Positions 490 to 64,000 are shown, counted from the first letter of the stretch. The stretch is DNA of 64,000 nucleotides from an uncultured Nitrososphaerota archaeon (GCA_963842885.1 CAWJIE010000005.1:224001-288000), one strand, 5' to 3'. Notes: a model not told the origin generated them from the sequence alone. Translations and numbers: made by a program.

Positions 490-1617
490 TCAGGACACAA
501 GAGGCGTTTCCACGTTGGTGTTCCACCAGGGCTTGGACCAAGCTTTGTCGACGACGGGAAGGGCAGAAAGGATCCACCGCCCCATCTCCTGCACGTGCGA
601 CATCTGATGTCCGTTGAGGCCCTTGGTCTTCATCCAGTCCTCTCCCGAAACGAGGTTCTCCAGGTTCAGCCGGGTAGTGAGAAGCAGCTTCTGGTCGTCC
701 AGCGCCCGCCTTAGCCTTTCGATGTCCAACCGGCCGTCTCCTCCGTCAATAAGGAGAGCGGAGACGTCCAGCATGTCCTTCTCCTCCATACCGAGGATGG
801 CCCTGTCCTTCCTGTAAGGTGGATAACGGAGGATCCGGCAGGCGGCGCTCGCCGGAAGGCTGACGACCTTGGGGTCGTATTCGTTGATCAGCTGACATTT
901 GGATATGATGAGTTTCTCCATCCCAATGGTGTGGAGGTTCCTCTCAGAAAGGGCGAACTCCGCCTGCACGTTGATGCGGTGGCGCATCTCAATCTTGTCG
1001 ACAAGTATGTCAACCACGCTGGGCGAGGGCTGTCCGTCCTCGCCCCAGTCGATGCCCCTTGCTCTGTACCTTTCGCCTGCCCGCAGGGCGTTGAACCTCC
1101 TGTCGTTCGACGTAAGGAAGTGCATGTACTCGGAGCCAGCGACGGTCTCCAGATAAGAGAGTACCTGCACGAACTTCCCGGCCTGACTCTTGGGCAGGAT
1201 GAAGTCAAGGTCGTGGATCTTACGGTTCATGGCGCCTCCCACTTCGTTGGCGCTGGCGCTCAGGACCTTGACGGCGGCGCCGCCCATCAGAAGAGGCTGT
1301 AGGGGGGAGTCCAGCTTCCTTCCGTTCTGGGTGTTCCTGAACGTCGAGGGTGCCGTGGTCGCGGCCCAGAGGGCCACGACGGCCCTGCGCATCACCGTCG
1401 GCTTGAGGTCCACGTAGGAGGGGATCTTCAGGTCCTCGCGCAGCCTCTCGACGTCGACGTTGCTGCGGGGCTGCCTTTCGGCTTCGAACGTCTCTCCGCC
1501 CGGCCCAAAGTAGACGCGAACCCTTTCTGGTGAGGTCAAGGCAGCCTTACATTGTGCCCTGTGCGATGCGAGCATATATGTGGGTTGCTGGCGGGTTCGG
1601 CTTGCGCACCCACGCAA
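490..1617 (-). CDS. Uncharacterised nucleotidyltransferase-fold protein
   Basis: LLMGGAAV...RKIHDLDF (GG..DxD pol-beta-type motif) and C-terminal KD..D motif; true start probably ATG 1575 or TTG 1539. Confidence 0.65.
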   Translation of the reverse strand: MRGCASRTRQQPTYMLASHRAQCKAALTSPERVRVYFGPGGETFEAERQPRSNVDVERLREDLKIPSYVDLKPTVMRRAVVALWAATTAPSTFRNTQNGRKLDSPLQPLLMGGAAVKVLSASANEVGGAMNRKIHDLDFILPKSQAGKFVQVLSYLETVAGSEYMHFLTSNDRRFNALRAGERYRARGIDWGEDGQPSPSVVDILVDKIEMRHRINVQAEFALSERNLHTIGMEKLIISKCQLINEYDPKVVSLPASAACRILRYPPYRKDRAILGMEEKDMLDVSALLIDGGDGRLDIERLRRALDDQKLLLTTRLNLENLVSGEDWMKTKGLNGHQMSHVQEMGRWILSALPVVDKAWSKPWWNTNVETPLVS

Positions 1618-1809
1618 TCAACGGTGGAACAGTGCTTCCGTCACACCATTCGGCCCATACCGGATGAGTCGCCAGAGGACAACTCGTGGCTGGTTCGCAG
1701 CTCCTGAGCTGAGCGTCGCCAGTCGACATGGAACAGATGTTTTCTGGCTCGGCCTGCAAGATGTTCCCCCCCATAAAGGCTTAAATTGGCGCGGAGACGA
1801 CACCATGTT

Positions 1810-3405
1810 ATGACCGAACAAGAACGGTCATCCGTTTTCGTCAGAGAAAGCACAGGTCTAGTCAAGAACGTATCAATGTTCGACGCAATAGCTCTAAACG
1901 TAAGCAACATGTCTGCCGGAGCGGCCCTTGCGACCATCGGCTTCACGATGGTAGCCCTTCCTTCTTCCGTATCTGGCGTCAACCTAGTGGGTGCCTCACT
2001 CATAGCGTTCATCCTATCCATACCCGAAATAGTCGTCTACACTATGATGACGAGGAGGGTTTCACGCACAGGAGGGGACTACATCTGGGTGTCGAGGACG
2101 TACGGCGGCCTCTTCGGAAGCGCACTGTCGTTCATGGGCTACACCGTCGAAACCATGGCATATCTTGCCCTAATCGCCCTTTCCGCAATATTCGCAATCG
2201 GTTCCGTTGGCCTATTCTTCTACCCGTCTAGCTCCTTCTCCTTGGGCCTCGCACTGCCCGGAGATCTCGCCGGTTCGACGCCATACGTACAGCTCGTGGT
2301 GGGGGCGCTGATATTCGCCGTCCTGATAGGAATCAACATTTTCAAACCCAAGTACGGCTACAGGCTCGTCTCCGTCCTCGCTCTCGTGGGCGTGGTCGCG
2401 ATGGTGGTGGGGATACTCGCCCTCGTCAGCGCCGGCCAGACCGGCGTCGCGAACTACATGAACGGACTCTCCAGCGCCGTCGGCGACTCTTCGATCAACT
2501 ACACCTCTGTAGCGTCTAGTTACACGGGCTCCACCTTCAACTGGGCCGGATCACTGTTCCTTCTGCCATTCTTCGCAATCTTCGTCTACCCATGGCTCAA
2601 CGCCGGCCCCGCCGTCGCGTCTGAAATCAAGGGAACCCGCGGAATCAAGTGGAACGTCCCTATCGCCTCATTCTTGGTGATGATACTCGTCACCACTGCC
2701 TTCGGCGCGATGTACTACGCAGGCGGCTTCCAGTTCGTGACGGCCGCCCTTTCGAACCCGACGCTGGTATACGACTACTCGTTCAACTTCTGGACCCTCG
2801 CCATGGGTGCGGTGAACAACACCTACGTGGCCTGGTTCCTGGGCATCGGTTGGGTCCTGTGGACCCTGGCCGTGCTCGCATACGGAATCATCGTCACTTC
2901 AAGGTACATCTTCGCGCAGGCGTTCGACAGGTTCCTCCCTGAGAGGTTGGCCACAATCAGTCCCAGGTACGGCTCTCCCGTCGTTACGCTCCTCTTGGAG
3001 TTGGTGGTTACGGTAGGCTTGGTCGCGGCAGGCGCGGTGCTCTACGGAGGCTTCCAGTCGCTCTACGCGGCGGTAATCGCTTCGATGATCTACTTCTTCT
3101 TCGTCGGAATCGCAGCTGTCATCCACGCATTCAGGAACGAGAAGGGGACTTCGAAGGGCATTCTGTCGCTATCTGGAGGGCTGATGGCCGTCGTATTCGC
3201 ATTCATCGTTTACCAGTTCCTCACCAACCCCACGATATGGGGCACATCGGCAACAGCGTTGGGCATGCCGGGCTACGACTTCGCGTACATCTACGTCATC
3301 GTATCTTTCGTGCTGGGCATAGTGATATACCTGACATCGAAGAGCTACCACAAGAGCAAGGGCATCAACATAGACTTAGCTTATAAAGAGATTCCGCCAG
3401 ACTGA
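1810..3405 (+). CDS. APC-family amino acid/polyamine permease
   Basis: About 12 TM segments, VFVRESTGLVK start, RTGGDYIWVSR, SRYIFAQAFDRFLP; ATG at 1810 preceded by TTAAAT. Confidence 0.9.
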   Translation: MTEQERSSVFVRESTGLVKNVSMFDAIALNVSNMSAGAALATIGFTMVALPSSVSGVNLVGASLIAFILSIPEIVVYTMMTRRVSRTGGDYIWVSRTYGGLFGSALSFMGYTVETMAYLALIALSAIFAIGSVGLFFYPSSSFSLGLALPGDLAGSTPYVQLVVGALIFAVLIGINIFKPKYGYRLVSVLALVGVVAMVVGILALVSAGQTGVANYMNGLSSAVGDSSINYTSVASSYTGSTFNWAGSLFLLPFFAIFVYPWLNAGPAVASEIKGTRGIKWNVPIASFLVMILVTTAFGAMYYAGGFQFVTAALSNPTLVYDYSFNFWTLAMGAVNNTYVAWFLGIGWVLWTLAVLAYGIIVTSRYIFAQAFDRFLPERLATISPRYGSPVVTLLLELVVTVGLVAAGAVLYGGFQSLYAAVIASMIYFFFVGIAAVIHAFRNEKGTSKGILSLSGGLMAVVFAFIVYQFLTNPTIWGTSATALGMPGYDFAYIYVIVSFVLGIVIYLTSKSYHKSKGINIDLAYKEIPPD

Positions 3406-48559: not shown

Positions 48560-48803
48560 AGGATTGAAGCCAGACCTTGGCAACCACCTAACGGCCTTTG
48601 GCGAGTTCTGGGGGGCATGGAACTACCGTAACGATTGCCTCCCCGATAGGATTCTCGGAAACGAGCGCCTGATTCGTAATCGGCTCAAATTGAGAGAGAT
48701 ATCGGGTCTGGGAGAAGACATTCCACATCTGTGCGCCGCAACGAGGATCTGCTTGGCAGGAAAGACCTCCCCCTAAGACGTTACCTACGGTGGAAGAAGC
48801 CAA

Positions 48804-49925: not shown

Positions 49926-50093
49926 TCCTGCCCAGCTCTCATTGGCCGTGCGGGCATTGGGGAAAAAAGTGCATAGGGGATTGTTTTGGGCCGATTGTGT
50001 TGGAAGCCCTTTGAGGACTCCAACCAGGAAGGCAACGTCGTATGGCAGGCATCCGGGCTCGCGAGTCCAACCGGTCATGCGGGCGGAACCGTG

Positions 50094-51296
50094 ATGGCAA
50101 GATCTCGCGTGGTTGTCTTCTCCGAGGCGCTGTGGCCGAACGGCGGAGGCGCGGAGCTGGCCACCCACCTCTTCGTCAAGTCTCTGGTCGAACACGGTTT
50201 CGACGTTACGATGGTCACGGGCCAGCCCTCGGGCCCATCACGCGACGGCCTCACCGTGCTCACCTCCAGCGTACTGAGGGCGGGTTCGAAGACTGAATTG
50301 TGGATCAAGATCCTTTCACGGGGATCGCTTTTTGAAAGCATCATTCGAGACCACGAGATCGTCTATATCCCTAGGCTGTGTTATCCTCTGGCGCCGATTG
50401 CAAAGAAGCTCGGAAAGAAGCTGATCATTCATCTCCACGACTACGCGCCGATCAGCTATTCGGCAGCGGTCCCTGCTCCATTTGAGCCCACAAGAGATTA
50501 CCTCGGAAAGGTCAAGGCATTCAATCTATGGCTCGAACGTAGAAAGGGACGAAGCGCACAATATCTGGCCATCTTCGGGGATCTTCACACTCGTCTGGCC
50601 AGATACTGGCTGGGCTATGCGGATCACTTGGTCTGCGTCTCGGATAGACAAATGCAGATAATATCAGCGCTGGCTCCGGAGCTAGGAGGTCTGCTTTCGC
50701 GGGTGTACAATCCTCTTCCTGACTTGCCCAGGGTCCAGGATAGGTCCCGTGGAGAACCCGCGTTCCTCTACGTAGGAGGAGGCGCCTATCACAAAGGGTT
50801 CCATGTCTTCGTCAAGGTCGCGAGTCAACTGCTGAGCCAAGGCACCAACGTGAAGTTCCTGATGACGGGGACCGCGAACCAACGTTCCGACACCTTGTTC
50901 AGCAGAGTTCGCTACAGGTTCGATGGCGCTTTTCAGACCCTGGGAAGACTGCCTTATGACCAGTTGGTTGAAAAATACGCCTCCGTTCGGGGTCTCATAT
51001 TCCCTTCGATATGGGAAGAGCCTCTCAGCTACGCTGTAGCGGAGTCAATGGCTGCCGGCGCCATACCCATTGCTTCAAACGTCGGAGGGAACAGCGAACT
51101 GGTCAGGGGAAGTGCCGCCGAGCAATATCTCTTTGATCCGTTCCAGTCAGATTCTCTGGCGCGTAACATCGAGTCCATCCTATCGATGTCGGAGGGCCAA
51201 CTCCTGAGCATCGGGGAAGACCTGAGGGGTAGCATTTCCCGCACTCTGAGAGCAGAGGCGACGACGGAGAGGTTTGTGCGGTTCTTCGAGAACTGA
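50094..51296 (+). CDS. Glycosyltransferase family 4
   Basis: GGGAE, HLHDY, HKG, PSIWEEPLSYAVAESM. Confidence 0.88.
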   Translation: MARSRVVVFSEALWPNGGGAELATHLFVKSLVEHGFDVTMVTGQPSGPSRDGLTVLTSSVLRAGSKTELWIKILSRGSLFESIIRDHEIVYIPRLCYPLAPIAKKLGKKLIIHLHDYAPISYSAAVPAPFEPTRDYLGKVKAFNLWLERRKGRSAQYLAIFGDLHTRLARYWLGYADHLVCVSDRQMQIISALAPELGGLLSRVYNPLPDLPRVQDRSRGEPAFLYVGGGAYHKGFHVFVKVASQLLSQGTNVKFLMTGTANQRSDTLFSRVRYRFDGAFQTLGRLPYDQLVEKYASVRGLIFPSIWEEPLSYAVAESMAAGAIPIASNVGGNSELVRGSAAEQYLFDPFQSDSLARNIESILSMSEGQLLSIGEDLRGSISRTLRAEATTERFVRFFEN

Positions 51297-51367
51297 CTCA
51301 CTTTGGGCCGCTTGCTCGTTCGGTTTCAACAAGGAAAGAAGACCGCATAGCGTCAAGTGAATCCAGA

Positions 51368-52010
51368 TTGGTCTTCGTCTCTCTTACCTTCGACGACGGT
51401 TTTCTGCGCCACTACGCCGTTGCAAAGATGCTCCACAGAGTTGGCGTCTCGGCTTCTTTCTACATCCCTACGGGAAGGACGCCATTCTATGAAGGCAAGG
51501 GGGGTCGACTGGCTTCAAGGCCCGACCTTCTTGGGGAGATGGTTGACATGGGACACGAAATCGGTTCGCACACGCACACTCACAGAGACCTCAGACTGCT
51601 AAGTCCTCTGGAAGTCAGGGCTCGAGTGTCGGGAATCGATCGAAGGGTTGAATGCGGCTCTAGGTTCACGCTCGCACACTTATGGTCTGGCATACCCTTT
51701 CGGCCTCTTCAACGAGGTCGTTAAAGGCGAGGTGAGCAAGGCCTTTAGCTACGCGAGAGCTGGGAGCTACTCCAACAGATGGAACACCGTTCGAGACCCA
51801 TACGCTATCGGCAGCTTCGGGCCCAGCAGGCATCTGGCGGAGATACCACTCAAGGTCGCTTCGAACCCGTCGTGCCCGATAGTCCTGATGTTCCATTCAG
51901 AACCCCTCCCCCTGATTCTCTTTGTCGTCCGGATGCTGCTTTCTATGAACATGAAGATTGTCCCATTGAAGACCTCTTTGACTAGTCTGGGGATCGTGTC
52001 TCAAAAGTGA
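51368..52010 (+). CDS. Polysaccharide deacetylase; frameshift near 51625
   Basis: LTFDDG, HEIGSHTHTH, then AYPFG and LMFH in the next frame. Confidence 0.85.
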
Positions 52011-52063
52011 GGAACTATGCTTGCGCCACTGGTCGCCGACTCGATGTCCGGGAACTGTAGCGC

Positions 52064-53292
52064 ATGAGCAGAGTACGTCCCCTGAACATTGCGATAATGG
52101 ATGATGCTGGCTTCGGTCGAGGAGGTCCGGGTCTGTTCGGGAAGGAGCTCTACTCGGGACTTCTGGCTGACATCAACGAAAACCTCCTGGGCAACGTTGC
52201 GGTGAGAATCAACTTGGGCGACATCACCCCCAGGCGTATGTCCGGTTCGACGGGCGGCAGTGATGTCCCGTTTCTGCGGGCCTTCTGGGACGCTGGCACC
52301 GTAAGAGAGCTGAGTGGCCTGATGCGACAGGCGAACACCGACATCGCCCACGCCAATGTCGTAAACGCGCGATACCGCGTTCCATCGTCAGAGCAGTCAA
52401 ACAGGCAAACGTTCCCCTTGTGACGACAGTTCATAGCTACAACTCTCTTTGTCCTACGGGATGGGCGACCAGGTTGCCGGAGCTGGAGCCTTGCGCCAAC
52501 TTGGGCCTTCAGATTCATTGTCCGGTGTGCCTCTGGAACGAGTCGCGGCTAAGCCAGAAGCCACGAACAAAGAGGCTGTTGGACGGGTTGAACCAGCAGG
52601 CTGCGCTCCGCCTTCTCCTCAGAGAGTCTAGGTCCGTCGTCGTGCCCTCGAAGGCACTGGCGTCCCAAATCGAGGCTGACATCGGTTCGGTCGGGCTGAA
52701 TGTCGCATACAATCCCGTCCCAGACGAACTCCTCGAGATCGAGCCAAGTCCGGGCGAGGAGGGGACCGTCGCCTTTGCCGGGAGACTGACCCATGAAAAA
52801 GGCGCGCACCTGCTTCCGAGGCTGGCCGACTTGATGAAAGGGACGAAAGTCCATGTGATGGGAGGGGGCCCTCTGGCGAGCTTCGTCCGGGAGCAGGCAC
52901 GGAGTCGCCCTAACCTCATCTTTCATGGATTCGTTTCACAGAAGGAGAAGACAGACATCTTCAGGCGGGCGGCAGCGATATTGGTTCCTAGCCTGTGGTT
53001 CGAGGCCTTCGGCTACTCGGCGGCGGAGGCCCTGGCGCTAGGCAAGCCGGTCGTTGGGTTCTCTGTCGGGGGCGTTGGCGAACTCGTCTCCCAATCGGGC
53101 GGGGGCAGGGCCGTCAAACCATTCAATTTAGGAGACTTGGCCGAAGCAGTCGAATCCATTGCCGGTGACAGGAAGTGCTCTTATGAACTCGGAACCAAGG
53201 GAAGGGATTTTGCTCGAAAAGAGCTAAGCGAAGACCACTTCGCATCCAACCTTCAGAGAATCTATTCAAGGAGCTTGAGCAAACTCCAATGA
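52064..53292 (+). CDS. Glycosyltransferase family 4; frameshift near 52370
   Basis: TVHSY..CP, GRLTHEKG, PSLWFEAFG..AEAL. Confidence 0.82.
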
Positions 53293-53414
53293 AGAATCTC
53301 CTTTTCATCGGCGCGCCGTTCGGAGTCGTGAGTGGAAGCTCGGCTAGGGCTGCCAAGGTGCTGCCGTCCCTTGCTGAAATTGTTCTAGAAGAGACCGACT
53401 GAGAGGTGGGATAG

Positions 53415-54539
53415 ATGTCAGACAGCCTTAAGGAACTCAAGGAGACCTGGAAAGAGCCAGCGAACCCCGGCATTGAGATTATCTCACCAAGTGAAATCCT
53501 GCGTGAGGTCCTGAAATCCAACATGGTGCTCGCCAGTCTCTATGCGGTACCTCCTCTACTGTCATACCTCTGCGCGCACAATGAGAAAGACAGCTGCCTG
53601 TACCTCGGCTACAAGGGGAGCATAATCCCCATTGTAATCAGGAGGACTCTAGGCATCTATGCGCTAGCTCAACACTCGCCACCTCAGCTCGCCGTCCGAG
53701 GTGATGGCGCAAGAAGCGTAGATGTTGCCGAGAACATAAGGGTCCTCAGAAAGGCCTTTCCAGCCCTTCTCATCAAGCTTAGGCAATATCCCTTCGACTA
53801 TGCGTATCTCGGCTCGTCGGCAGACTTGGGTATCAGGCCAAGGACCAATGATCGCGATATCCGAATCGACTTGACGAGCCCTGTCAAGGTCATATACTCA
53901 AGGTTTGACAAAAACCACCGTAACAGGATCCGTAGGGCACTGAACAATGATGACGAAGGAGTGATATCTTCAACGGCCGAAACCTTGCCCTACTACGTTC
54001 ATGACGAGACGAACCTTGACGGAATTGGAAGGTTCGGGCGCCTCTTGGGGCATACCCTCAGGAAGATGTCCTTTCAGGGAGATGCGCCGAATTCCCAGGG
54101 GTACATCCTATCCTACGCAAAGGAGTTCTCTCTCTTGAAAAAGTCATTCTCAACTCTAAGAGATTGTAATCTTGTCAAGGTCTTCATCGCGTATGATGAT
54201 CAAGGGAACCCGGCTTCGGGGCTTGTGGTGCTGCTTTCCGGGAGATTCATCAGGTCTCCGATGGGCTTGACACTTTTGGGTGGTTCCACTCGGGAAGGAA
54301 ACAGACAGGGCTTGTCTGTGGCTCTGGAATGGTCGGTGATAACCTGGCTCAGTCGCAACGGCTATGACAGATACTACATGGGCGGAATAGGTCCGGTGGA
54401 CACCAAAGGCGGACCAGCCCAATTCAAGAAGGGCTTCGGGGGGCAAGTGGTACCTGGTCACGTTCTTTGGCACTCCCCTTTCCCGTTCCTGGGTGAGCTT
54501 GCGGAAACGCGTGGTATTCAGCACTGGCTCGGGCAATAG
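53415..54539 (+). CDS. FemAB-like/GNAT-fold protein
   Basis: IDLT..FDKNHRNRIRRA, W..I..G...Y.MGG, FKKGFGG. Confidence 0.72.
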   Translation: MSDSLKELKETWKEPANPGIEIISPSEILREVLKSNMVLASLYAVPPLLSYLCAHNEKDSCLYLGYKGSIIPIVIRRTLGIYALAQHSPPQLAVRGDGARSVDVAENIRVLRKAFPALLIKLRQYPFDYAYLGSSADLGIRPRTNDRDIRIDLTSPVKVIYSRFDKNHRNRIRRALNNDDEGVISSTAETLPYYVHDETNLDGIGRFGRLLGHTLRKMSFQGDAPNSQGYILSYAKEFSLLKKSFSTLRDCNLVKVFIAYDDQGNPASGLVVLLSGRFIRSPMGLTLLGGSTREGNRQGLSVALEWSVITWLSRNGYDRYYMGGIGPVDTKGGPAQFKKGFGGQVVPGHVLWHSPFPFLGELAETRGIQHWLGQ

Positions 54540-54749
54540 GGCCTGGGGATGCTAACAAGCTTGCAACCCTTGGCTTGCTTGGGAGAAGGGCGGAGGCTAA
54601 CTAGCCAAGACGAAATGGAGAGGATATCGGTACAACAGAATGCCTTTGTGGGAATATCGGAATGGGGTATGGACCTAGGCATAATCCTATGTGAGCCCTT
54701 CAAAAGCGCTTAGGCAAGCTTGACGATAGTAGAATGAAAGGAGAGACCT

Positions 54750-55838
54750 GTGGGAGTGCACGCATCTAGAAATCTCAGAGGAACCAGATTGACCGTGGCC
54801 ATCGTAGGGCCATCCACGGAATACGTATCCGGATCGTTGTTGCGGCCTCTCAACATCTGGTACGCACTTAGCTCGACAGGACTGTTAAAGCCAGTTTACA
54901 TCCCGATTAGTAGCTTCGCCAGTCTAGTCCCACAGCTTAGGTCTGTGATCGCTCCGCAAACGCTGATTGTTAGTGGAGTGAATCCTTGGGTCTCCGCGTT
55001 CATAACATTGCTGCGCCGTTCCGTTCACAAATCAGCCATAGTCGACGTTCATGGATTCGCTTGGTACGAGTCTTCTCTTATGCACGAAAGTGGTTTCGTG
55101 CGGCGAATCATGCTCTTGATGTGTGAGTCTGTTGCATACAAGACTGCATCATCGGTTGTATCTGCATCCGCAGGACTTGGCTTGTTGCTATGGAAATGGC
55201 TGAGAGTGAGAGCAACAGCAATCCCGAACGCCGTCAGCCCATTGTTCGAAAGAACTCTTCCATTTGTTCTTCCTTCAAAGGGTCACTGTAGAGAGCAACT
55301 GCTGAGAGAGGTGAGTTCTCGACCTAACACTATTCTCATTTTAGCCCCGCTGCCCACGGTATTTGCTGCTAATATGAAAGCCCTAGATGAACTCAGGAAA
55401 GTCGCAGGACAAGAAGGGGTAACATTTCTAGTTACAGGGGCTGCATTGGAAGCAACGCCTGGCATCGTTTTTCTCGGGTATCTGAGCTTTACTCGCTATG
55501 TGTCTACTTTGGCTGCTGTTGATGCGGTGATTCTACCATTCCCAAGTGAGGCTATCTGTGGTGGAGCGAGGAACAAGCTCTTGGAGGCCGGATACTGCGG
55601 TCTCCCAGTCATCTCAACGAAGAGCGGCGTTCTTTTTACAGAGGCTACGCCTTACACACATTATATTCCGCTAGAGCAGGGCACACAGATTGCAGAAACC
55701 ATTGAAGCTTATGCCGACCTTGTAGCTCCAGCCCTTCACGAGCTTGTGTTACGAGAGTACGATTTCGGAAGATTCAAGACGAACTTTATCTCGCTCATTG
55801 TCTGTAAGTCAAAGTATCTTCGTGACATGGGGCAATGA
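54750..55838 (+). CDS. Glycosyltransferase family 4-like
   Basis: VDVHG, IPNAV, GARNKLLEA..G.PVIST. Confidence 0.8.
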   Translation: MGVHASRNLRGTRLTVAIVGPSTEYVSGSLLRPLNIWYALSSTGLLKPVYIPISSFASLVPQLRSVIAPQTLIVSGVNPWVSAFITLLRRSVHKSAIVDVHGFAWYESSLMHESGFVRRIMLLMCESVAYKTASSVVSASAGLGLLLWKWLRVRATAIPNAVSPLFERTLPFVLPSKGHCREQLLREVSSRPNTILILAPLPTVFAANMKALDELRKVAGQEGVTFLVTGAALEATPGIVFLGYLSFTRYVSTLAAVDAVILPFPSEAICGGARNKLLEAGYCGLPVISTKSGVLFTEATPYTHYIPLEQGTQIAETIEAYADLVAPALHELVLREYDFGRFKTNFISLIVCKSKYLRDMGQ

Positions 55839-56169
55839 TGTTGTTTCCTCATGCAGAGTCACGCCACGCTCATCTCGCGTGTTATTCCATTTTCCTGCGG
55901 GCGGTTTTTGGGTTATCCAGACGCAAATAGTCAGTTGACTCCCATCTCGTTCTCTGAGTCTTGCAGAACATGGGAGCGTTCGAGATCGCGCCCGGACTTC
56001 GACTAGTAGCATTCACACAGAAATGAGAGTTCGAGTACGTCGCACCGATGGTCCTTCCAATACTGGGTTCGTCCGTAATCACGCCGCGTGTACCTATGCG
56101 AAGGTCCATTTGGCCGCTTTATCCTTGAGCTAGCTATCACATCGTTCGACTCATAGGGAATGCAACCGG

Positions 56170-56853
56170 ATGCGCAAGACCATGGTCATCTTTGTAGGTG
56201 TGCACGGAACTGGAAAGACAACACAGGCCAATACACTCAGAGAGCGGCTGACTGTGCAAGGTCTACGTGTTCGAGCGACAAGCTCGATTCAGTACGTCAT
56301 GATAGATAGAGTCTGGTACAGGGTACTTGAGTTTGTGACGCGAAGAAAGATCCGGTTTCAATACCATCCGCAAGGTCCCGAAATAGAATTCCCAGACCCA
56401 CTAATACTCGAACGTTTGTTCGTGTTCGACCTTCTGATTCATTACGCCTGCGCAATTCTTTCGTTGCTTAAACTCTATGGACTGTTGCTATCCTCTGATG
56501 TTGTGATAGAAGACGAAGGATCGATATTTCGAGAAATGGCCTATGTAGCCGACGTTCATCGCCGGCGCGTTTCCTCTAGCCAGGTCAAAAGAAGATTCGG
56601 AATTATCAGGCGATTGCTCCCCGCTTCAACTATTGTCGTTCTTCTCGAAGCCGAGTATGAGCGTCTTGAAGAAAGGTACAAACGAAGGGGTTCTCCAATC
56701 GAGCCGAGTAGTTATATCGCGTTCCAAGCGAATTCACTTCGAGAGATGCTCCAGGATAGTGGAGTCCGTGTCTTGGAAGTAGAGGCAAATGGAACATTTG
56801 ATCATGTGTTCGAGAATACCTGGAAACTATTCAGCGAGATATTACGTCGATGA
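56170..56853 (+). CDS. Thymidylate-kinase-like P-loop protein
   Basis: VIFVGVHGTGKTTQ Walker A, lid arginines RYKRRG. Confidence 0.72.
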   Translation: MRKTMVIFVGVHGTGKTTQANTLRERLTVQGLRVRATSSIQYVMIDRVWYRVLEFVTRRKIRFQYHPQGPEIEFPDPLILERLFVFDLLIHYACAILSLLKLYGLLLSSDVVIEDEGSIFREMAYVADVHRRRVSSSQVKRRFGIIRRLLPASTIVVLLEAEYERLEERYKRRGSPIEPSSYIAFQANSLREMLQDSGVRVLEVEANGTFDHVFENTWKLFSEILRR

Positions 56854-56987
56854 GTTCAAGCGTCGCAACGTTCTGCCATTCTCTCTCTGCTGAGAATAGG
56901 CTTTGAGTCACCTACAGGACCTGATAGGTGTTCTGATTCCTTCTTCTCAGGACCACCGGCATTGTTGAAGGCGGTAATCTGGTAGCT

Positions 56988-58259
56988 TTGTCTGATTCCT
57001 ACCAAGCGGACCAGACAGCCGGCCACGGTACCGGACCCAAAAACCAAGCGGCGCACACTATTCTATTCATGACTGAACGGTGCATCGAAGATAGCGGAGG
57101 ATCATCCTTTCGAATGAGAGGAATTGCTCGCGGTCTCTCGAGGCGAGGCTTTAGAGTACTATCAGTAGATGCAGTCCATAATTCGTATGTCGAGTTCCAT
57201 GGCGAAAGAGAATCCCGCGTTCCGCTACGTCGTTCGATTGTGGTTGCGTTACTTTCGTACATCTTATTGGTTCTTGATCGACTTCTAGCCGCCTTGATTC
57301 GCTTTCCCATCGAGGAAGTCCGTAGGATTACTTGCGTATTCGATGTCGCCTTGCTCCTGGATTCTATTCGGCTCGCGTCTCATGTCAAGCCTGATGTAAT
57401 CCAGGTGGAGGAATACTACTCTCTTTTGCCAGTCGCCGCAATCGTGAAGATGCTGACTCGCTCTCGGATGCTAGTACTGGACGAGCACAACATAGACGTC
57501 TTTAGGCTTTCTGACTTCCATCGAAAGAACTGGTTGTTCTGGGCGAGCGTGTATGCGCTGGAAAAGTTGGGGGTAAGCTCCAGCGATTGCACGTTTGTGA
57601 CCTCTGAAGTCGAGAAAAGCAGGCTGCGATGCCTGTGGAAGAGCAATGAGGTCGTGGTCATTCCCAACTTTGTCTCGTTGGAATCAATTCGCAAGAGCCG
57701 GGAAGGTTTCCCCAGCCAACTTGATGGTGTTGTAAAGGACTCCAAACCAGTCCTCATGTTCCATGGAGACTTCAGATACCCGCCAAACAGGGAGGCGGTG
57801 CACGTCATTCTTGACAAGTTCTTACCTCAACTGAGGGCGGTCTATCCGGCAGTTTTAATCCTGGTTGCCGGTCCGGGACTAGCTCCAGAAAGAAGACCCA
57901 ACGTAGTTTTCCTTGGGTATGTAAGGGACATATACGACGCGATACGGCATGCTGATGTGGCGCTCGTTCCTCTGCTCAACGGAGGCGGAACACGAATCAA
58001 GGTGCTGGAGTACATGGCGTGCGGGGTTCCTGTTGTTTCGACACCTAAAGGTGTCGAGGGACTGAGTTTGGAAAATAGAAAGGAAGTTCTAATCTGCGAC
58101 ATAGACTCAACCGTAAGTGAGCTAATCGCTCTTCTGGAGGACAAATCATTGAGAGAATCTATCGTGAGGAGTGCCTTTGGCAGGATATACCGAGAGTATG
58201 ACGCGAATAGGGTCTGTGCGCAGATCGCAACAGCATACCGCGAGTATCTGGGATTTTAG
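56988..58259 (+). CDS. Glycosyltransferase family 4
   Basis: DEHNID, YPPNREA, GGTRIKVLEYMACG.PVVST.KGVEG. Confidence 0.88.
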   Translation: MSDSYQADQTAGHGTGPKNQAAHTILFMTERCIEDSGGSSFRMRGIARGLSRRGFRVLSVDAVHNSYVEFHGERESRVPLRRSIVVALLSYILLVLDRLLAALIRFPIEEVRRITCVFDVALLLDSIRLASHVKPDVIQVEEYYSLLPVAAIVKMLTRSRMLVLDEHNIDVFRLSDFHRKNWLFWASVYALEKLGVSSSDCTFVTSEVEKSRLRCLWKSNEVVVIPNFVSLESIRKSREGFPSQLDGVVKDSKPVLMFHGDFRYPPNREAVHVILDKFLPQLRAVYPAVLILVAGPGLAPERRPNVVFLGYVRDIYDAIRHADVALVPLLNGGGTRIKVLEYMACGVPVVSTPKGVEGLSLENRKEVLICDIDSTVSELIALLEDKSLRESIVRSAFGRIYREYDANRVCAQIATAYREYLGF

Positions 58260-58559
58260 TAGGGCTGTCTCTTTGACACAGTCGGCTCGCCGCACTAGGA
58301 TGCTTGTTCTTCTTCACAGCTATAGGTGGGGAGAGAGAATCCGGGTCGACGCGAGAAGATTTCTAGAACCTGCAAAACACCTTCACAGCCAATGGCATTG
58401 ACCGATGCGTCTTCGAACGTTCGCCTTCGATGCAAAAGAACTAACCTAATCCATTTGGCCTATTGATCGTTAGAGATTCCAGATTGCTAGGGTTTCGACA
58501 TCCTTGTCAGGAATGCCTCGGAAATTGCTGTTCGTCGTGTGAATGGAGGCGTCCTTAAG

Positions 58560-59213
58560 ATGCCCCTGATCTGCTTGTTTGGGCCCGACGGCGCGGGGAA
58601 GACCTCGCTTGCCAGAGCCTTAAAGGGCGAGCTGGCCCGAAGAGGCTTCAGAGCCCGAGTCTCTTGGATGAGAGGTACCCATACTTTCGCGTCGTTGCTG
58701 GCCAGGATGATGGCCAAGTTCCCTTCATTTGCTGGCAGCGACAACTTCTACTACCAGATATCCATTCCAAGGCGCCTTCTTCATTTGTGGCAGTTCGTAG
58801 AATTCGTTTCAATGCTTCCCGTGCTTCTTATGCGTTTTCTTCTTCCCAGCCTGCTGGGCAATTTCGTGATAGCCGAGAGATACATTCCCGACTTCTTGGT
58901 CTGGGTGACCCTAACTACGAACGACTCGACCTATTTGGGGTCACTTGGCGCTAGGTTCCTGCTTTCCCTTCTCTCCAAGACGGGAACCAAGTTCTACGTG
59001 ACCGCCGAATATGCCGAGCTGATTAGGAGAAGGAACGACGTTGCCCCTACTTTCCTCAAAGGGCAGCTGGACCTCTACGATAGGCTTGCGAAGTCCGTCG
59101 GAGCGAAGAAGCTGGACACCACTTGGACTAGTGCGGACGAATCTGCGAAGATCTTGATTGACTTGGTGGACCGAGACTTGGCACGAGAAGGCCACTGGCC
59201 CACAACAGGTTGA
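58560..59213 (+). CDS. Thymidylate-kinase-like P-loop protein
   Basis: ICLFGPDGAGKTS, VIAERYIPD, LIRRR. Confidence 0.8.
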   Translation: MPLICLFGPDGAGKTSLARALKGELARRGFRARVSWMRGTHTFASLLARMMAKFPSFAGSDNFYYQISIPRRLLHLWQFVEFVSMLPVLLMRFLLPSLLGNFVIAERYIPDFLVWVTLTTNDSTYLGSLGARFLLSLLSKTGTKFYVTAEYAELIRRRNDVAPTFLKGQLDLYDRLAKSVGAKKLDTTWTSADESAKILIDLVDRDLAREGHWPTTG

Positions 59214-59489
59214 TCCCAAGTGTCTAACTTGCTGGCGCGACGAAGGCCTCAAGGCTTCGTCCTATGTGGCCGTCCAGGGGATTCTCCTGCGGGTGCCTGC
59301 GCCTACCATCGGTCTATTCCCTCTGCCCACTCGTCTAGTCCCGTTTGCCGAATATCCACCTCGGCAAAGGCAAAGAACGAGGCAGGGGGCATGCGGCCTT
59401 TCCTCTTTGGGCAAAAGGCTTTAGAGGAGTTCGCGATAATTGATATATTCACTGGTCGCATCACTAGAGCCCCGGGTGAAGTGTCCTAG

Positions 59490-60605
59490 ATGGCAATCGT
59501 GGCGATTACTTCAATCGGTGAGCTGGAGAGAATAGCCACACAATGGGACTCTTTCGTGATAGACCGTGGCACGAATCCCTTCTTTCTGAGCGGATACATG
59601 AAGCACTTCATGGGCCACTCTCGGATGGAAGGATGGAGGCCCCTAATTCTGGTCGGGATGTCAGGTGAAGCTGTGGTAGGAATAGCAGCCTTCAAGACCC
59701 GGCGCACGCTTGGAGTCAAGGCAGCAGAGTTCATTGTCCCTGCCTCTTATTCACCAGATTTTCTTGCGGACCCCCTGCACCGTCAGTCCTTCCCCATGGA
59801 AAGCTTGGAGTTCCTCATTGACAAGTCAGGGTGCCAGTTAGCCGAGTTAGTATTGCCAAGCCATTCGCCGTATGTGAAAGTGATAAAACGATGGTCCTCC
59901 GCCCGTCGAATCTCTTATCGGGAACTGCCGCCGAGGAGGCTGATGGCTCATTCGATTCTCCCCGTGGTGGACACATGGGTTGATTTTACAAGGGCGCGAG
60001 GGAGAGACTTCGCCCGGCACTACACGAAAATTGAGCGCAAACTGCGTGAGAAAGGGAAGCCTGCAATAGACTCTACTGGAATTAACCGTCCTGAGGTCGT
60101 GAAAAGAGTACTCGAATTGGACAAGAAAAGCTGGAAAGAGGAGTGGCGCAAGAAGAAGGGAGACCTCATTGATTTGGATCTAGAAATGCTTCTAGGGTAT
60201 TGGAATCGCTCATCGAAGATGGGACTTGAGTATTGCCCTAGGGTATGGTTCTTGGAACTCGACGGGGAACCCATCGCTTACGCCATAGCCCTTCGATTCA
60301 AGAAGACAGCCTTTCTCATCAAAACTTCCTATGACTCGAGCCTTAGCAAGTTCTATCCAGGGGACTACGTTCAGAATATCGTACTTCGAGATCTATTCGA
60401 CTCAAAGCGCATTTCCTTGATAGACTTCCATACCAGGCTCCCATATCACCGCAGATGGACCACCTTATACTTGAACAGAGAGAGGATTCGGCTGTGCAGG
60501 AGGAGTGTCCTCTCAGCCTTTCTGGCAATGTCCGATTGGAATCAGGCATCGTCTAGGTTGAGCAAGGCAATTCTGTATCGGATTAGGATTATCGATATTC
60601 CTTGA
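59490..60605 (+). CDS. GNAT acetyltransferase, CelD/BcsL-like
   Basis: W..F...NPF, SWK, LELDGEPIAY..KTSYD..YPG..DF. Confidence 0.78.
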   Translation: MAIVAITSIGELERIATQWDSFVIDRGTNPFFLSGYMKHFMGHSRMEGWRPLILVGMSGEAVVGIAAFKTRRTLGVKAAEFIVPASYSPDFLADPLHRQSFPMESLEFLIDKSGCQLAELVLPSHSPYVKVIKRWSSARRISYRELPPRRLMAHSILPVVDTWVDFTRARGRDFARHYTKIERKLREKGKPAIDSTGINRPEVVKRVLELDKKSWKEEWRKKKGDLIDLDLEMLLGYWNRSSKMGLEYCPRVWFLELDGEPIAYAIALRFKKTAFLIKTSYDSSLSKFYPGDYVQNIVLRDLFDSKRISLIDFHTRLPYHRRWTTLYLNRERIRLCRRSVLSAFLAMSDWNQASSRLSKAILYRIRIIDIP

Positions 60606-61524
60606 GTCCGGCGTCTTGGGTCGCACCGAAGTTCATCTTATCTTCTACACTGTCGCCTGGAAGTCATGATTCGAGGGATTAGCAGACTGTAAGGAAGCCC
60701 AACGACCTGCGGATCCGGTCCTAACTTTTCTCCGCGAGTACCTGGTCCGCGGCCTTCCCATTCTCGTGGAAGGAGCTGAACTCTGACAGCGAGAAGTAAG
60801 CCCTCTGCGGAGCCAGAAAGGATGGCTCTGCCCCGCACTCCACTTTGGAGTACCGTTCTCTTTATGCTCCGCCTATCCTCGGGCGCAATAACGGACTCCC
60901 TGAGCGCGGACGTAACATGCCATGGGCCATTCTTGACGTTCATCCCTCAAAGGCCCGGGGAGTCTATGGCCCTGCGGCGCTCGAGGATCTTGCGGCAGAT
61001 GATATGTCAAGCGGTCTTGCTGTCTTGGTTAGGACCTTCTCCCTTGGCGCACGGGTACGTGGTTCCGACGGCTCTATCCTCCTTAACGAGTGGGGCTGGC
61101 TCAAAGGACGGAGAATCGTTTCGTCTAGGTGGTTTGCTAAAAGGTCGAAGGCTCGCTGGGGCGTCCTTGGCGGGCTTACTGGTTGTCTGAACTGTATATA
61201 TTGGAAGCTCATCAAAAGACAACCTTTTCCCCGTTGGCTTTGGGAAAAAGCTAATGCTTTGACGACAAAGCTGCCCTAGAGGTAGCCTTTCTATATAGCA
61301 CCAAGCGAAAGGTTATAAGGACACCAAGTTTGTGAGGATATTGGTAGAAGGATGGCCGTCAACAATACCGGAAAGTTGGCACCCGGACAATGTACTAGAA
61401 TAATTCTACAGAAACTTCTAGGAAGGTTGGCATCAGGCTGTTATAGGAATGCTATGTGTTTCGAGGCAATAGCAGGAGGATGCCTGCAAAGAATGCCAGA
61501 GCATAGGTATATCGAGGTGTCGAG

Positions 61525-62052
61525 ATGAGCATAGACAGACGGAAATTTCTTAGGACGTTGGCGGCTGGCTCTGCCTTTGGGCTGGCGGCTGGCGGATTAA
61601 TTGGCTTCCAGGCTAGGCAAGCCTCGGCTGGTTGGCCGACTGGCCAACCCTTGGATGGGCACGGCTTGAACGCTTCGCCGTCTTCCGCTTCGAGCCTCGT
61701 GCAGCCTTATTCCTACCTGATCTTCTATGACTCGGCTGCGGGACTCTACGAAGCCATGAACGGAACGACCGGAGCGACCGACTATTCGGGAACAAATGCG
61801 GCGACGGTGATTCAAGCAGCTATCAGTGGAGCGCCGACAGGTGGCAGTGTCTATATCCAGGTTGGTACTTACAGTGGAACCGGCTCCGTCACCAACACCA
61901 ACGGACTGTCGATAATAGCCCAAGGTGGCGCAGCGTTCTCCGGCTTCACGATGCCCGCCTTCGCAAGGATGCCAAGCACTGTGACCCGACACGTTACCCT
62001 CACTCCGAATGGGCCTTATGACGGGGGCGACTTCGGGCCGAGTAGCTCGTGA
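61525..62052 (+). CDS. Tat-exported surface protein, N-terminal part of a probable beta-helix protein
   Basis: DRRKFL twin-arginine signal with ASA cleavage site; YSYLIF..NGTTG..YSGTNAATVIQAAI..GGSVYI..GTY cap motif; ends ...PNGPYDGGDFGPSSS. Confidence 0.8.
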   Translation: MSIDRRKFLRTLAAGSAFGLAAGGLIGFQARQASAGWPTGQPLDGHGLNASPSSASSLVQPYSYLIFYDSAAGLYEAMNGTTGATDYSGTNAATVIQAAISGAPTGGSVYIQVGTYSGTGSVTNTNGLSIIAQGGAAFSGFTMPAFARMPSTVTRHVTLTPNGPYDGGDFGPSSS

Positions 62053-62058
62053 TAAGAA

Positions 62059-63780
62059 ATGAGCAACATTAGTCCATACGGCGCATTTACAGGAAGGAGG
62101 CTCTACTCAACGAGCAAGATTGACAACGAGATAGAGGAGATCCTTCACCGCTTCAGCAAACTCGAATACTACCAGCGGATGCCGACCAACCCTAACCAGT
62201 CGCCTTGGGTGTCCCAGCGGACGGGTCACAGCTACCGGGCCGAGTGGCTCCGTGAGGCGAAGGAATGGGAGAGGGGTCTGGTCGGAACAGAGGACGACAA
62301 GATGCTTAAGCAACGAATCCTTGACAGGATCCTGCGGGTCGAGAGGGGCATGGTCGCAGCACCGGGTCATCTGGCGCTCATCCCTAGCTGGAGGAAGGTC
62401 GGAGAGAGGTCCTTCAAGAGATACTTTGGCATCGAATACTTCGGCGGCAAGCACATGAGGATGCTGCCAGCCCCGCTTCAGAACCTCGACAAGATGATGA
62501 TCGGGGGGCTTACCAACATGGCTTCTACCACGTCTGGCTTCCAAGAGGCGATCAACCACCTGTCAACACAGGGAACCAACAATTCCTCCGTGCAGGGCGG
62601 CGTGTTGGAGATATTCCCTGGGGCCTACACTTCCAATTCGGTGTGGCAGCTTCCGACCAGCGCATCCACCGCGTTCGACTTCACATTGCAGGGAGGCGGC
62701 AAGAGCAACACTGACATCCAAATCACGCCAACTGGAAGCCAAACCGCGGCCATTAGGGAGGGCTACACTTCTTGGCTTCACGGAACGATGGGGCCGAGGT
62801 TCGTGATGCGTGACCTGAGCATGGACGTCACCGGAGCCTACTCAGGCACATCTGCTCCCTCTGGCGACAGCTCCAGTGGCGGGGTCGTCAGCCTTCAGTT
62901 CTACAGCGTGTTCTTCGATCGCGTGGGCATGTCAATTAATGTAACCCTCAACTCACCCACGAATCTCCTGAAGTGTGGGACGTATGCAGGCCCATCCCAG
63001 CCCTGCAATTGGAGCAATTTCGAGATTCACGGCTTCTCAGGCGCGAACATCCTATCGGTCGTAGTGGCTTGGTTCGAAGGCTTCTCTTGGACGGGGGGAC
63101 TCGTCGAGTTGCAGGATACAGGTCATAAAGGCAACGGCATAACCATCCGCAGCAACGGACCTAACTATCTCGGACAGATTGACTCGTATGACCTCGGTAA
63201 AGGGACGACGAACACTTGGGGCTGTTTTGTGAGCCCTTCAGGTACGACGACGTTGGACGAACTTGAATATCCTTTCGTGGAGAACATCGGCAGCTCGACT
63301 GGCTGCGGCTCGGTCTCCGGCGGGGCTGGTAATCCTTGCATCACAATCATAGGCATCCAAAATGAGTCAGCAGTCGCACAAGGCGACCCCACGGAATTTG
63401 CCTTCTGGAACGACGGATGCAAGTACCTCAAGACGATAGGCTTCTCCTTGGGGCTTCAGAGTGGCAATCAGTGGCTTTCGAGTTACCTGACTGGACCTTT
63501 CAACAACAACGTAGCGGGAGTTGGCTATCTCCTTGGCACAAATACCTACAATGGCGTGACAACTCCGACAGCAAGCACAACTTACAAGGCCAGTGCCGAC
63601 CTGTTGCTCAATTCCAGCGGCGGAACAGGCGTAAGTATCACAATTTTCGACCAGTTCGGAAATGTGATCCTAACAGGGCTGACGACGCTCTCGGCTTTCA
63701 ATCTGAAGCTCGGCATGCAAGTCAACTTCGGAGCCTTCAGCATGGCTCCATCGGTCACGGTATTTCAAGTCAGTGGCTAG
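62059..63780 (+). CDS. Unknown 154-aa charged domain fused to Ser/Thr/Gly-rich pectin-lyase-like beta-helix region
   Basis: Same frame as the upstream ORF; abrupt change in composition at STTSGFQEAINHL..GGVLEIFPGAY..TLQGGG; no signal peptide. Confidence 0.75.
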   Translation: MSNISPYGAFTGRRLYSTSKIDNEIEEILHRFSKLEYYQRMPTNPNQSPWVSQRTGHSYRAEWLREAKEWERGLVGTEDDKMLKQRILDRILRVERGMVAAPGHLALIPSWRKVGERSFKRYFGIEYFGGKHMRMLPAPLQNLDKMMIGGLTNMASTTSGFQEAINHLSTQGTNNSSVQGGVLEIFPGAYTSNSVWQLPTSASTAFDFTLQGGGKSNTDIQITPTGSQTAAIREGYTSWLHGTMGPRFVMRDLSMDVTGAYSGTSAPSGDSSSGGVVSLQFYSVFFDRVGMSINVTLNSPTNLLKCGTYAGPSQPCNWSNFEIHGFSGANILSVVVAWFEGFSWTGGLVELQDTGHKGNGITIRSNGPNYLGQIDSYDLGKGTTNTWGCFVSPSGTTTLDELEYPFVENIGSSTGCGSVSGGAGNPCITIIGIQNESAVAQGDPTEFAFWNDGCKYLKTIGFSLGLQSGNQWLSSYLTGPFNNNVAGVGYLLGTNTYNGVTTPTASTTYKASADLLLNSSGGTGVSITIFDQFGNVILTGLTTLSAFNLKLGMQVNFGAFSMAPSVTVFQVSG

Positions 63781-64000
63781 ATGTCAAAGAATAACACTGG
63801 CCAGCTTCGGCATCTAACCGGGAACCTCAGAACCTCAGCCCCGACGATCAATGCGGGGTGATTCGTCTGTGGCACAGGCTCTCTACAGCCCAAGCTCAAG
63901 TCGCTCACCACCCAGCGCTCGGGGCTAGTTGAACACACCGCCTTCGGTGCTCCTGCTCTGGTTCCTGCCGCGTCTTGCCACCAAGTGGGTGCATGTTAGC

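Follow-up and report, generated by a model that had tools for sequence, protein, structure and literature searches.

A probable insertional gene fission in a Nitrososphaerota archaeon divides a Tat-leader protein of predicted beta-helix fold and leaves a conserved orphan domain

Why does a gene for a predicted surface protein stop in the middle of a motif and resume, in the same reading frame, 471 nucleotides (nt) further on? The locus occupies positions 61,525 to 63,780 of a 64,000-nt stretch of DNA from an uncultured Nitrososphaerota archaeon (GCA_963842885.1 CAWJIE010000005.1:224001-288000), here called the window. The host is a soil or freshwater archaeon with a genome of 2.03 Mb in 11 contigs, 87% complete. 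The locus consists of two open reading frames (ORFs) on the plus strand: ORF1, which begins with a leader of the twin-arginine translocation (Tat) type, and ORF2, which has none. An earlier note had proposed that the interrupting stretch is a protein-coding, perhaps circularising intron in the messenger RNA (mRNA), or a DNA insertion acting as an on/off switch. Our analysis suggests a different answer, an old and fixed insertion that split one gene into two, whose products would be reassembled and exported together through the Tat pathway. We assign this explanation a probability of about 0.55. Its first part, a stable two-gene fission without excision, is very likely; its second, the reassembly of both polypeptides with ORF2 hitchhiking on the Tat leader of ORF1, for which we argue by analogy, is tentative and falls somewhat short of even odds.

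ORF1 (61525..62052) encodes 175 amino acids (aa) followed by a stop codon and is taken as the N-terminal fragment of the split protein, based on its open frame, its nine relatives and its ratio of nonsynonymous to synonymous substitution rates (dN/dS). A Shine-Dalgarno-like (SD-like) site read from the sequence, GAGGTG (61514..61519), lies 5 nt ahead of its start. The protein begins with MSIDRRKFL, followed by a hydrophobic stretch and then ASA; residues 1-35 (61525..61629), with DRRKFL, the hydrophobic core and ASA then G, were read by eye as the leader. A first cap module (YSYLIF...NG-x5-DY...VIQAAIS...GGSVYIQVGTY) follows at 61705..61872, and the tail (VTLTPNGPYDGGDFGPSSS, 61993..62049) would be the strand half of a second one. 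The C-terminal end of the protein is ...TLTPNGPYDGGDFGPSSS, and ORF1 ends in ...PNGPYDGGDFGPSSS followed by TGA TAA GAA ATG, where TGA occupies 62050-52 and the ATG at 62059 starts ORF2 after a gap of 6 nt.

ORF2 (62059..63780, 573 aa) lies in the same frame as ORF1 (62059-61525 = 534 = 178x3). Its inserted 154 codons (62059..62520) encode a basic and hydrophilic N-terminal domain. Residues 155-573 and the stop codon (62521..63780), hereafter the C-domain, comprise a cap helix (TSGFQEAINHL), a predicted right-handed beta-helix and a C-terminal part. The stretch from 62050 to 62520 measures 471 nt, or 157 codons. The ORF coordinates, the stops, the same-frame layout and the 471-nt stretch are thus as the earlier note gave them, and so is the abrupt change of composition inside ORF2. 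Residues 1-154 have an isoelectric point (pI) of 9.9, 27% K/R/D/E, 23% S/T/G/N and a grand average of hydropathy (GRAVY) of -0.66, and residues 155-573 have a pI of 4.6, 9% charged residues and 44% S/T/G/N. The mature form of ORF1 has a similar make-up to the latter (pI 4.4, 6% charged, 44% S/T/G/N), and the C-domain retains the acidic, S/T/G/N-rich and Cys-containing composition of its exported relatives.

The motif at the break belongs to a cap module shared by the family, NG-x5-D[FY]-x-[GAP]-x(8-12)-[FI]Q-x-x-I[NS]. This module is uninterrupted in three unsplit relatives (P0007, P0008 and a protein of genome G057) and in the first module of ORF1. At the break, its halves are divided between the two genes, with NG-x5-DF-GP in the ORF1 tail and ...TSGFQEAIN in ORF2 from residue 155. 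In a local alignment, P0008 371-388 and ORF1 157-174 are identical at 8 of 18 positions, including PNGP and GD[FY]G, and P0008 390-793 aligns with ORF2 155-573, the two halves abutting without a gap. Between D[FY] and FQ, P0008 has a spacing of 11 residues, and so has the window when 62050-62520 is left out; the value is 12 for P0007, 10 for the protein of G057 and 8 for the first module of ORF1. The earlier note had described a motif of this kind as contiguous elsewhere, and it is indeed in one piece in all three unsplit proteins, while the collinearity of P0008 with the ORF1 tail plus ORF2 155-573 agrees with its view that the insert splits the module. The 154 codons are foreign to the family, because the unsplit proteins lack them. 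Judged from these alignments, an insertion cut a conserved module of a beta-helix protein at the very site that the note had named.

The two cap modules of ORF1 are supported in different ways. The first matches the start of the C-domain family in a profile-profile comparison (E 4.2e-5) and gives a weak match to Pfam PF12708 at residues 84-135; its motif also occurs in P0009 and in P0019-P0021. The half module in the tail is strongly conserved, with T160, P161, G163, P164 and D166-G171 invariant in eight sequences, so that the last 16 residues hold 10 invariant positions and are among the most conserved parts of ORF1. An alternative offered with the original proposal, in which ORF2 would have arisen as a separate paralogue of ORF1, found no support: a profile comparison between the ORF1 family and the 154-aa domain gave no match, so ORF2 is not simply an ORF1 paralogue. 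The start of ORF2, ISPYGAFTG, was also considered as a copy of TPNGPYDGGDFG and rejected, as the two have 4 residues in common, require a gap and give no profile match.

The distribution of relatives indicates how stable the two-gene arrangement is. A search with ORF2 155-573 among 5.8 billion clusters returned nine proteins. The 154-aa domain opens all six close relatives (P0001-P0006; C-domain identity 62-83%); the closest carry the source name 'Conexivisphaerales archaeon'. The unsplit P0007 (490 aa) and P0008 (793 aa), 40-41% identical, do not have this domain, and P0009 is a distant partial match. Among 401 genomes of the class, the C-domain was found at E<=1e-5 in three, namely the host genome (G000), its congener G003, and G057 from another family, whose protein is unsplit (495 aa), has a twin-arginine leader and also lacks the 154-aa domain. 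Identity of the C-domain to these unsplit Tat proteins (P0007, P0008 and G057) is 40-44% over the full length. The family is patchy within the genus, being present in two of five genomes and not found in G001 (59% complete), G002 (95%) or G004 (90%).

ORF1 has nine relatives (118-182 aa, 61-99% identical), and every one of them stops at the same point, DGGDFG.xx(x). Metagenome contigs contributed three loci (L015, L016 and L017). In the window, in G003 and in these three loci, the genes neighbour each other in an unchanged order, always with a spacer of 5-6 nt. The search of genome contigs gave nothing beyond two loci already known, viral contigs contained no relative among 116 pattern matches, and no paralogue of any of the three parts was found in the host's own genome. 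When ORF1 was compared with longer proteins, it matched three (P0019-P0021), and the common part was the first cap module only. The two-gene form is the only one observed in this clade. At the DNA level, close homologues consistently carry two genes and no insert-free DNA was found, an outcome that the earlier note itself had named as contrary to its proposal.

The junction between the genes (62049..62058) reads as a translation start. The sequence GTGAT (62049-62053), which is SD-like, overlaps TGA TAA GAA in the window, and L015 and L016 have the same TGA TAA GAA ATG. The junction of G003, L004 and L017 is 2 nt longer and contains GAGGT, a TAA stop, 5 nt and a TTG start, which places ORF2 in another frame; in one relative's contig, from a DNA sequencing run (X2), a G is added after 62054 (+1 nt). 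In both junction types, an SD-like pentamer precedes the ORF2 start by 5-8 nt, namely GTGAT for the window and GAGGT for L017, and ORF2, as read from these junctions, has its own SD-like site and start codon. We take it that these sites (GAGGTG, GTGAT and GAGGT) pair with the 3' end of the 16S rRNA. The shared frame of the window, on which the earlier note had placed weight, has a chance expectation of 1/3 and is not kept in G003 and L017 (+2) or in the X2 contig (+1). A fusion of ORF1 and ORF2 by read-through or frameshift was rejected, given two consecutive stops and frames that vary among lineages.

The inserted sequence behaves as a protein domain. In three pairwise comparisons, the dN/dS of the insert is 0.12, 0.11 and 0.11 (range 0.10-0.12, with a stop-free sense frame), compared with 0.29, 0.19 and 0.15 for ORF1 and 0.14, 0.12 and 0.10 for the C-domain; these values are rough, because the synonymous rate is saturated (dS >1.6 in most pairs). 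In a six-frame test, only the sense frame is stop-free with a low ratio of nonsynonymous to synonymous differences (pN/pS, 0.19-0.33). Divergence of the insert keeps pace with that of its flanks (66-83% identity versus 62-70%). By these values, purifying selection acts on the sense frame of the insert about as strongly as on the flanks. An antisense open frame of 150 aa crosses the insert (62107..62559, minus strand), and G003 contains a similar one (L004 1531..2154). The antisense frame was rejected as a real gene, its own pN/pS being 1.17-1.42 versus 0.19-0.33 for the sense frame; it is judged non-coding, lies outside the feature, and is probably a by-product of the high G+C content at third codon positions (GC3, 0.76) of the insert.

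The domain has few relatives. Against 1.84 billion representatives, it matched a single cluster (P0006), and among 61 related genomes it gave strong matches only in G000 and G003; five further genome matches (E 0.017-0.042) were treated as noise. It is single-copy in its own genome and always at this locus. No Pfam, PHROG or NCBIfam family covers it, the ESM Atlas gave no usable match to it, and a sequence search of the PDB with the ORF2 family profile returned only two matches (E 0.28 and 0.74). A PHROG match to a 'tail assembly chaperone' (E 0.08) was absent from all seven family members scanned whole and was dropped. AlphaFold2 modelling of ORF2 from seven sequences gave a mean predicted local distance difference test (pLDDT) of 43, with 25-40 in the N-domain; these models are poor because few sequences exist, and are unusable. 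By these searches, the 154-aa domain is an orphan.

The fold was examined on the unsplit G057 protein, which is 44% identical to ORF2 155-573. Its AlphaFold2 model, built from a 10-row alignment, has a pLDDT of 75 and a predicted template modelling score of 0.73. The model contains a hairpin (53-58, 65-69), a DF bridge, a cap helix (84-95) and a long beta-helix, and the window's break maps to the loop directly before the cap helix. A Foldseek comparison of the model with the PDB gave nine matches at E<=0.001, and every chain among them belongs to a phage tailspike or depolymerase. Depo32 (7vz3) led with E 2.4e-5; Pantoea WceF (6tgf) and the AlgE4 epimerase followed with E values of 0.021 and 0.018. 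A Pfam scan of 10 members of the C-domain family found no consistent family. According to the model, the family is a right-handed parallel beta-helix of the tailspike type.

Genomic context points to surface glycans. The split gene stands at the end of a run of genes for glycosyltransferases (GT1/GT4 and GT2), FemAB/GNAT-like proteins and P-loop proteins, and a convergent gene for a Wzx-type flippase lies downstream. In the other loci, a GT1 gene is found upstream in L015, and genes for FkbM-type methyltransferases lie on both sides in G057. WceF is a trimeric, tailspike-like enzyme with a Tat signal that is encoded in the stewartan exopolysaccharide cluster and affects polymer length, as described in PMC7949094. 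By analogy, the cell's own glycan was probably the target of the ancestral protein, which would have been an exported enzyme or binder. Two distant beta-helix relatives have long N-terminal regions of another kind: P0008 (1-280) and P0019 (1-200) begin with Cys-rich, zinc-ribbon-like and membrane-like regions before an internal twin-arginine-like motif, and could be either membrane-anchored forms or fused gene calls.

The neighbouring run spans 46730-60605 in the window, all on one strand. It comprises a 609-aa ORF without a Pfam family (46730-48559), a GT2 gene (48804-49925), four GT1/GT4 genes (49986-51296, 52420-53292, 54750-55838 and 56988-58259), genes for FemAB- and GNAT-like proteins (53415-54539 and 59490-60605), and genes for two small P-loop proteins (56170-56853 and 58539-59213). 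In G057, a second, isolated match of 37 residues to the extreme C-terminus of the C-domain (G057:C5:37430-37540, L014; 57% identity, E 1.5e-6) sits in a 40-aa open frame, perhaps as the remnant of a gene, perhaps as a shared C-terminal tag.

A Tat signal on ORF1 had been proposed earlier, and we treat it as a putative signal, read from a conserved motif (DRRKFL, hydrophobic core and ASA): DRR.F[LI] is kept in seven of eight aligned ORF1 relatives, the eighth being N-terminally truncated. In profile searches, the Pfam TAT_signal score is 12.2 bits, under the cut-off of 22.7, and NCBIfam gave nothing at E<=0.1. The unsplit P0007 passes TIGR01409 (17.4 versus 16.7 bits). TatA- and TatC-like genes are present in the genome. 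Tat export of partners without their own signal is documented (PMC4273604, PMC10924467). In two related loci (L015 1904-2494 and L016 1910-2494), the linker after the ORF1 leader has grown into a Ser/Thr/Pro-rich repeat (STSTS...), and the rest is conserved. Such repeats are typical of a glycosylated stalk.

The following history would account for these observations. The ancestor would have been a single gene in a polysaccharide-synthesis island, encoding a Tat-exported, tailspike-like beta-helix protein that trimmed or modified the cell's own surface glycan, as WceF does in Pantoea. About 470 nt would then have entered its N-terminal cap module, in the loop that leads from the strand (NG-x5-DF) to the cap helix (FQEAIN). 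The insertion would have closed the upstream part with stop codons and fused 154 new codons to the downstream part, along with a start codon and a ribosome-binding site. The outcome would be two translationally coupled genes: ORF1 with the Tat leader, the head and half a module, and ORF2 with the new basic domain, the cap helix and the beta-helix. The substitution pattern shows both pieces and the presumably insert-derived domain to be kept by selection as closely spaced genes. We further propose that the protein is reassembled in the cytoplasm before Tat export, the ORF1 tail docking back on the ORF2 cap, and that the 154-aa domain may serve as an assembly or chaperone adaptor. ORF2, which has no signal of its own, could then leave the cell on the twin-arginine leader of ORF1, because the Tat system moves folded complexes. 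Reassembly is inferred from the conserved half-module tail of ORF1, from a leaderless ORF2 with the composition of an exported protein, and from the precedents of Tat hitchhiking and of the split enzyme NrdA discussed below.

Several points weigh against this reading. No unsplit relative with the exact two-module head of ORF1 turned up (the head of P0008 differs, and P0007 and G057 have a single module), and for this reason the ancestor is a reconstruction. ORF1 also aligns end to end with residues 1-172 of the G057 protein (score 140), so to judge by this alignment an origin of ORF1 by partial duplication is conceivable, although the profile comparison backs only the first module in ORF1. The saturation of dS makes the measures of selection coarse. 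The fold matches have low TM-scores (0.2-0.3) and a sequence identity of 9-13%. The genome's only TatC match is in two pieces in different frames (G000:C9:3199-3877), which bears on whether Tat export works in the host. At this locus (L020, about 1465-2371), two tatC ORFs overlap (1465..2142 and 2030..2371) behind a TatA-like gene (779..1348), and the frame break may come from a frameshift introduced in assembly, or tatC may truly be broken or split. The 154-aa domain looks cytoplasmic, and ORF2 may stay inside the cell, because this domain is strongly basic and hydrophilic. Finally, removal of the insert after transcription, very improbable on other grounds, is compatible with the evidence at the DNA level.

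The alternative that survives best is a fission without reassembly, in which ORF1 is a small secreted protein and ORF2 has taken up a new role inside the cell, for example on a glycan precursor. In a variant of it, the N-domain of ORF2 acts as a propeptide or intramolecular chaperone and is then cleaved away. Such an outcome agrees with a signal-less ORF2 whose N-domain has a pI of 9.9 and a GRAVY of -0.66, with each gene being under selection by itself, and with the complete first cap module in ORF1. It leaves the half-module tail of ORF1 unexplained, since this piece is useless alone and nevertheless has 10 invariant positions in its last 16. It also does not explain why the genes lie side by side in every case, 5-6 nt apart, or why ORF2 155-573 retains an exported-type composition. 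We consider it unlikely, though well ahead of what follows.

The readings that invoke RNA, DNA or protein splicing are improbable even when taken together. The first of them holds that the splicing endonuclease, or another route, takes the 471 nt out of the mRNA and perhaps circularises them, so that one Tat protein results. Deleting 62050-62520 does restore a module with the P0008 spacing, and both subunits of the tRNA splicing endonuclease are encoded in the genome (two PF01974 matches over the cut-off), as is expected in any archaeon. We searched for the bulge-helix-bulge structure that this enzyme would cut at 100x100 positions around the junctions, with the expectation taken from 400 random placements. 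One strict match was found versus 0.8 expected; it lies off the junction (62089/62536) and does not fit, because its excision leaves the stop codons in place. Relaxed matches numbered 2 versus 4.9 expected, and no match was found at the corresponding places in L015 or L017. Duplexes from junction to junction were no better in energy than those of shuffled sequences (z 0.70, -0.06 and 1.51), and a search of both strands of 61300-64000 against Rfam gave no match at E<=1, hence no group I or group II ribozyme core. All 462 nt of the inserted codons show protein-level constraint of the same strength as the flanks, and ORF2 has its own ribosome-binding site and start in a frame relation that varies. 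Archaeal cbf5 mRNA introns are known (PMC2738675), which counts in favour of an intron. The intron or circularising element of the earlier note finds no support in our analysis, given the two-gene form of nine out of nine ORF1 and six out of six ORF2 relatives, the missing bulge-helix-bulge and the separate start of ORF2, and we hold removal from the mRNA to be very improbable. Equally doubtful is a form of it in which the insert is removed after transcription without a bulge-helix-bulge, or the halves are ligated otherwise, and both the Tat protein and, from unprocessed or circular RNA, a 154-aa protein are made. If true, removal of this kind would give archaeal mRNA a hitherto undescribed type of intervening element, one that carries an ORF.

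Even less can be said for a DNA switch, in which the insert would be mobile or excisable and would toggle the surface protein. The patchy family (three of 401 genomes of the class and two of five in the genus) and the location in a variable glycan island would suit such an element. No direct or inverted repeats bracket 62050/62520, and searches of Pfam, PHROG and NCBIfam found no recombinase, endonuclease, transposase or integrase motif or family in the insert, as the earlier note had already remarked for endonuclease and intein motifs. There is no second copy in the genomes searched, and the insert diverged in step with its flanks, contrary to what a switch would suggest. A search of sequencing runs for the stretch returned no RNA run and two DNA runs holding 0.05-0.07 of its words. 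The contigs from these two runs belong to relatives only; those of X2 bridge the 5' junction, no insert-free joint was seen among them, and none spans the whole stretch. One joint in these contigs, at 62144-62269, falls where P0001 and P0005 are shorter. With neither bracketing repeats, nor a second copy, nor an insert-free joint, we regard the switch as highly improbable. We also noticed a 15-nt direct repeat, 14 of 15 identical, between 62034-62048 at the end of ORF1 and 62236-62250 inside the insert. It was rejected as an insertion scar, being near chance by a rough estimate and lying in different codon phases.

Atypical split inteins with a long C-terminal part exist. A split intein formed by the end of ORF1 and the start of ORF2 to ligate the halves is scarcely credible here, even with fractured genes carrying split inteins on record (PMC2677866), as Pfam yields neither a Hint nor an intein match at E<=1, there is no room for an N-intein because the ORF1 tail is extein-like and collinear with P0008, and an invariant Asn or nucleophile is absent because the insert ends in ...GGLTN[MA] (...GGLTR in P0001), without His-Asn and with Ala or Thr as the next residue.

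Insertional fission with reassembly and joint export thus remains our preferred explanation. What the locus offers with most assurance is a clean natural case of a protein that appears to be cut in the middle of a structural module, with both halves long kept (in relatives down to ~62% identity) and the inserted sequence itself now a conserved protein domain without relatives in our searches. If reassembly and hitchhiking are true, the locus would be a natural case of split-protein complementation in a beta-helix, and a domain born from an insertion would have gained a function, that of an assembly adaptor. We know of no earlier case of Tat hitchhiking that rescues a broken gene, here in Archaea, though no literature search was aimed at this point. 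The family would also be an archaeal counterpart to WceF-type tailspike-like enzymes encoded in glycan-synthesis clusters. If the halves do not reassemble, the locus would be an ordinary gene fission with an orphan domain.

Known systems resemble the locus in different respects. ORF-bearing rRNA introns such as I-DmoI exist, and the small and large subunits of hydrogenases are a Tat hitchhiker pair. The archaeal cbf5 intron is likewise an intervening stretch in a coding region, in a host with a splicing endonuclease, as far as PMC2738675 describes it. Unlike the cbf5 and I-DmoI introns, the insert here has no bulge-helix-bulge at its junctions, brings its own start site, lacks an endonuclease motif, and has been kept as the N-terminal part of the downstream protein. 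In Tat hitchhiker pairs such as PaoABC, as reported in PMC4273604, one partner has the twin-arginine leader and the other none, which is the arrangement of ORF1 and ORF2. These pairs are cofactor enzymes with distinct subunits, whereas here the partners would be halves of a former single polypeptide and their complex is proposed. With Pantoea stewartii WceF (6tgf) and tailspike depolymerases (7vz3, 5w6h and 8iqe), the family shares a tailspike-type right-handed beta-helix, as predicted on the G057 protein, and with WceF, as that enzyme is described, also a Tat-type leader, putative in ORF1, and the gene position within a polysaccharide-synthesis cluster. WceF differs in being one polypeptide, and the family has 9-13% identity and TM-scores of 0.2-0.3 to WceF and the tailspikes.

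The closest parallel is nrdA of Aeromonas phage Aeh1. There, the insertion of mobE turned one gene into two neighbours, both of which have persisted, and the insertion left newly born sequence on the fragment ends; as far as the cited account goes, this involves no RNA or protein splicing and no DNA rearrangement, and the insertion-derived tails assemble the fragmented enzyme (Crona et al. 2011, PMC3045599). In Aeh1, the homing-endonuclease gene persists as a separate ORF, the tails are short and assembly has been shown for NrdA, whereas the window has no endonuclease, its whole 154-codon insert is fused downstream as a conserved orphan domain, and assembly is our proposal. Mitochondrial cox2, in another system and organism, was according to PMC5374615 also split by an insertion into complementary genes that were kept. 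The fission proposed here would thus be of a known type, insertional gene fission, and the insert-born orphan domain would be the feature that it adds.

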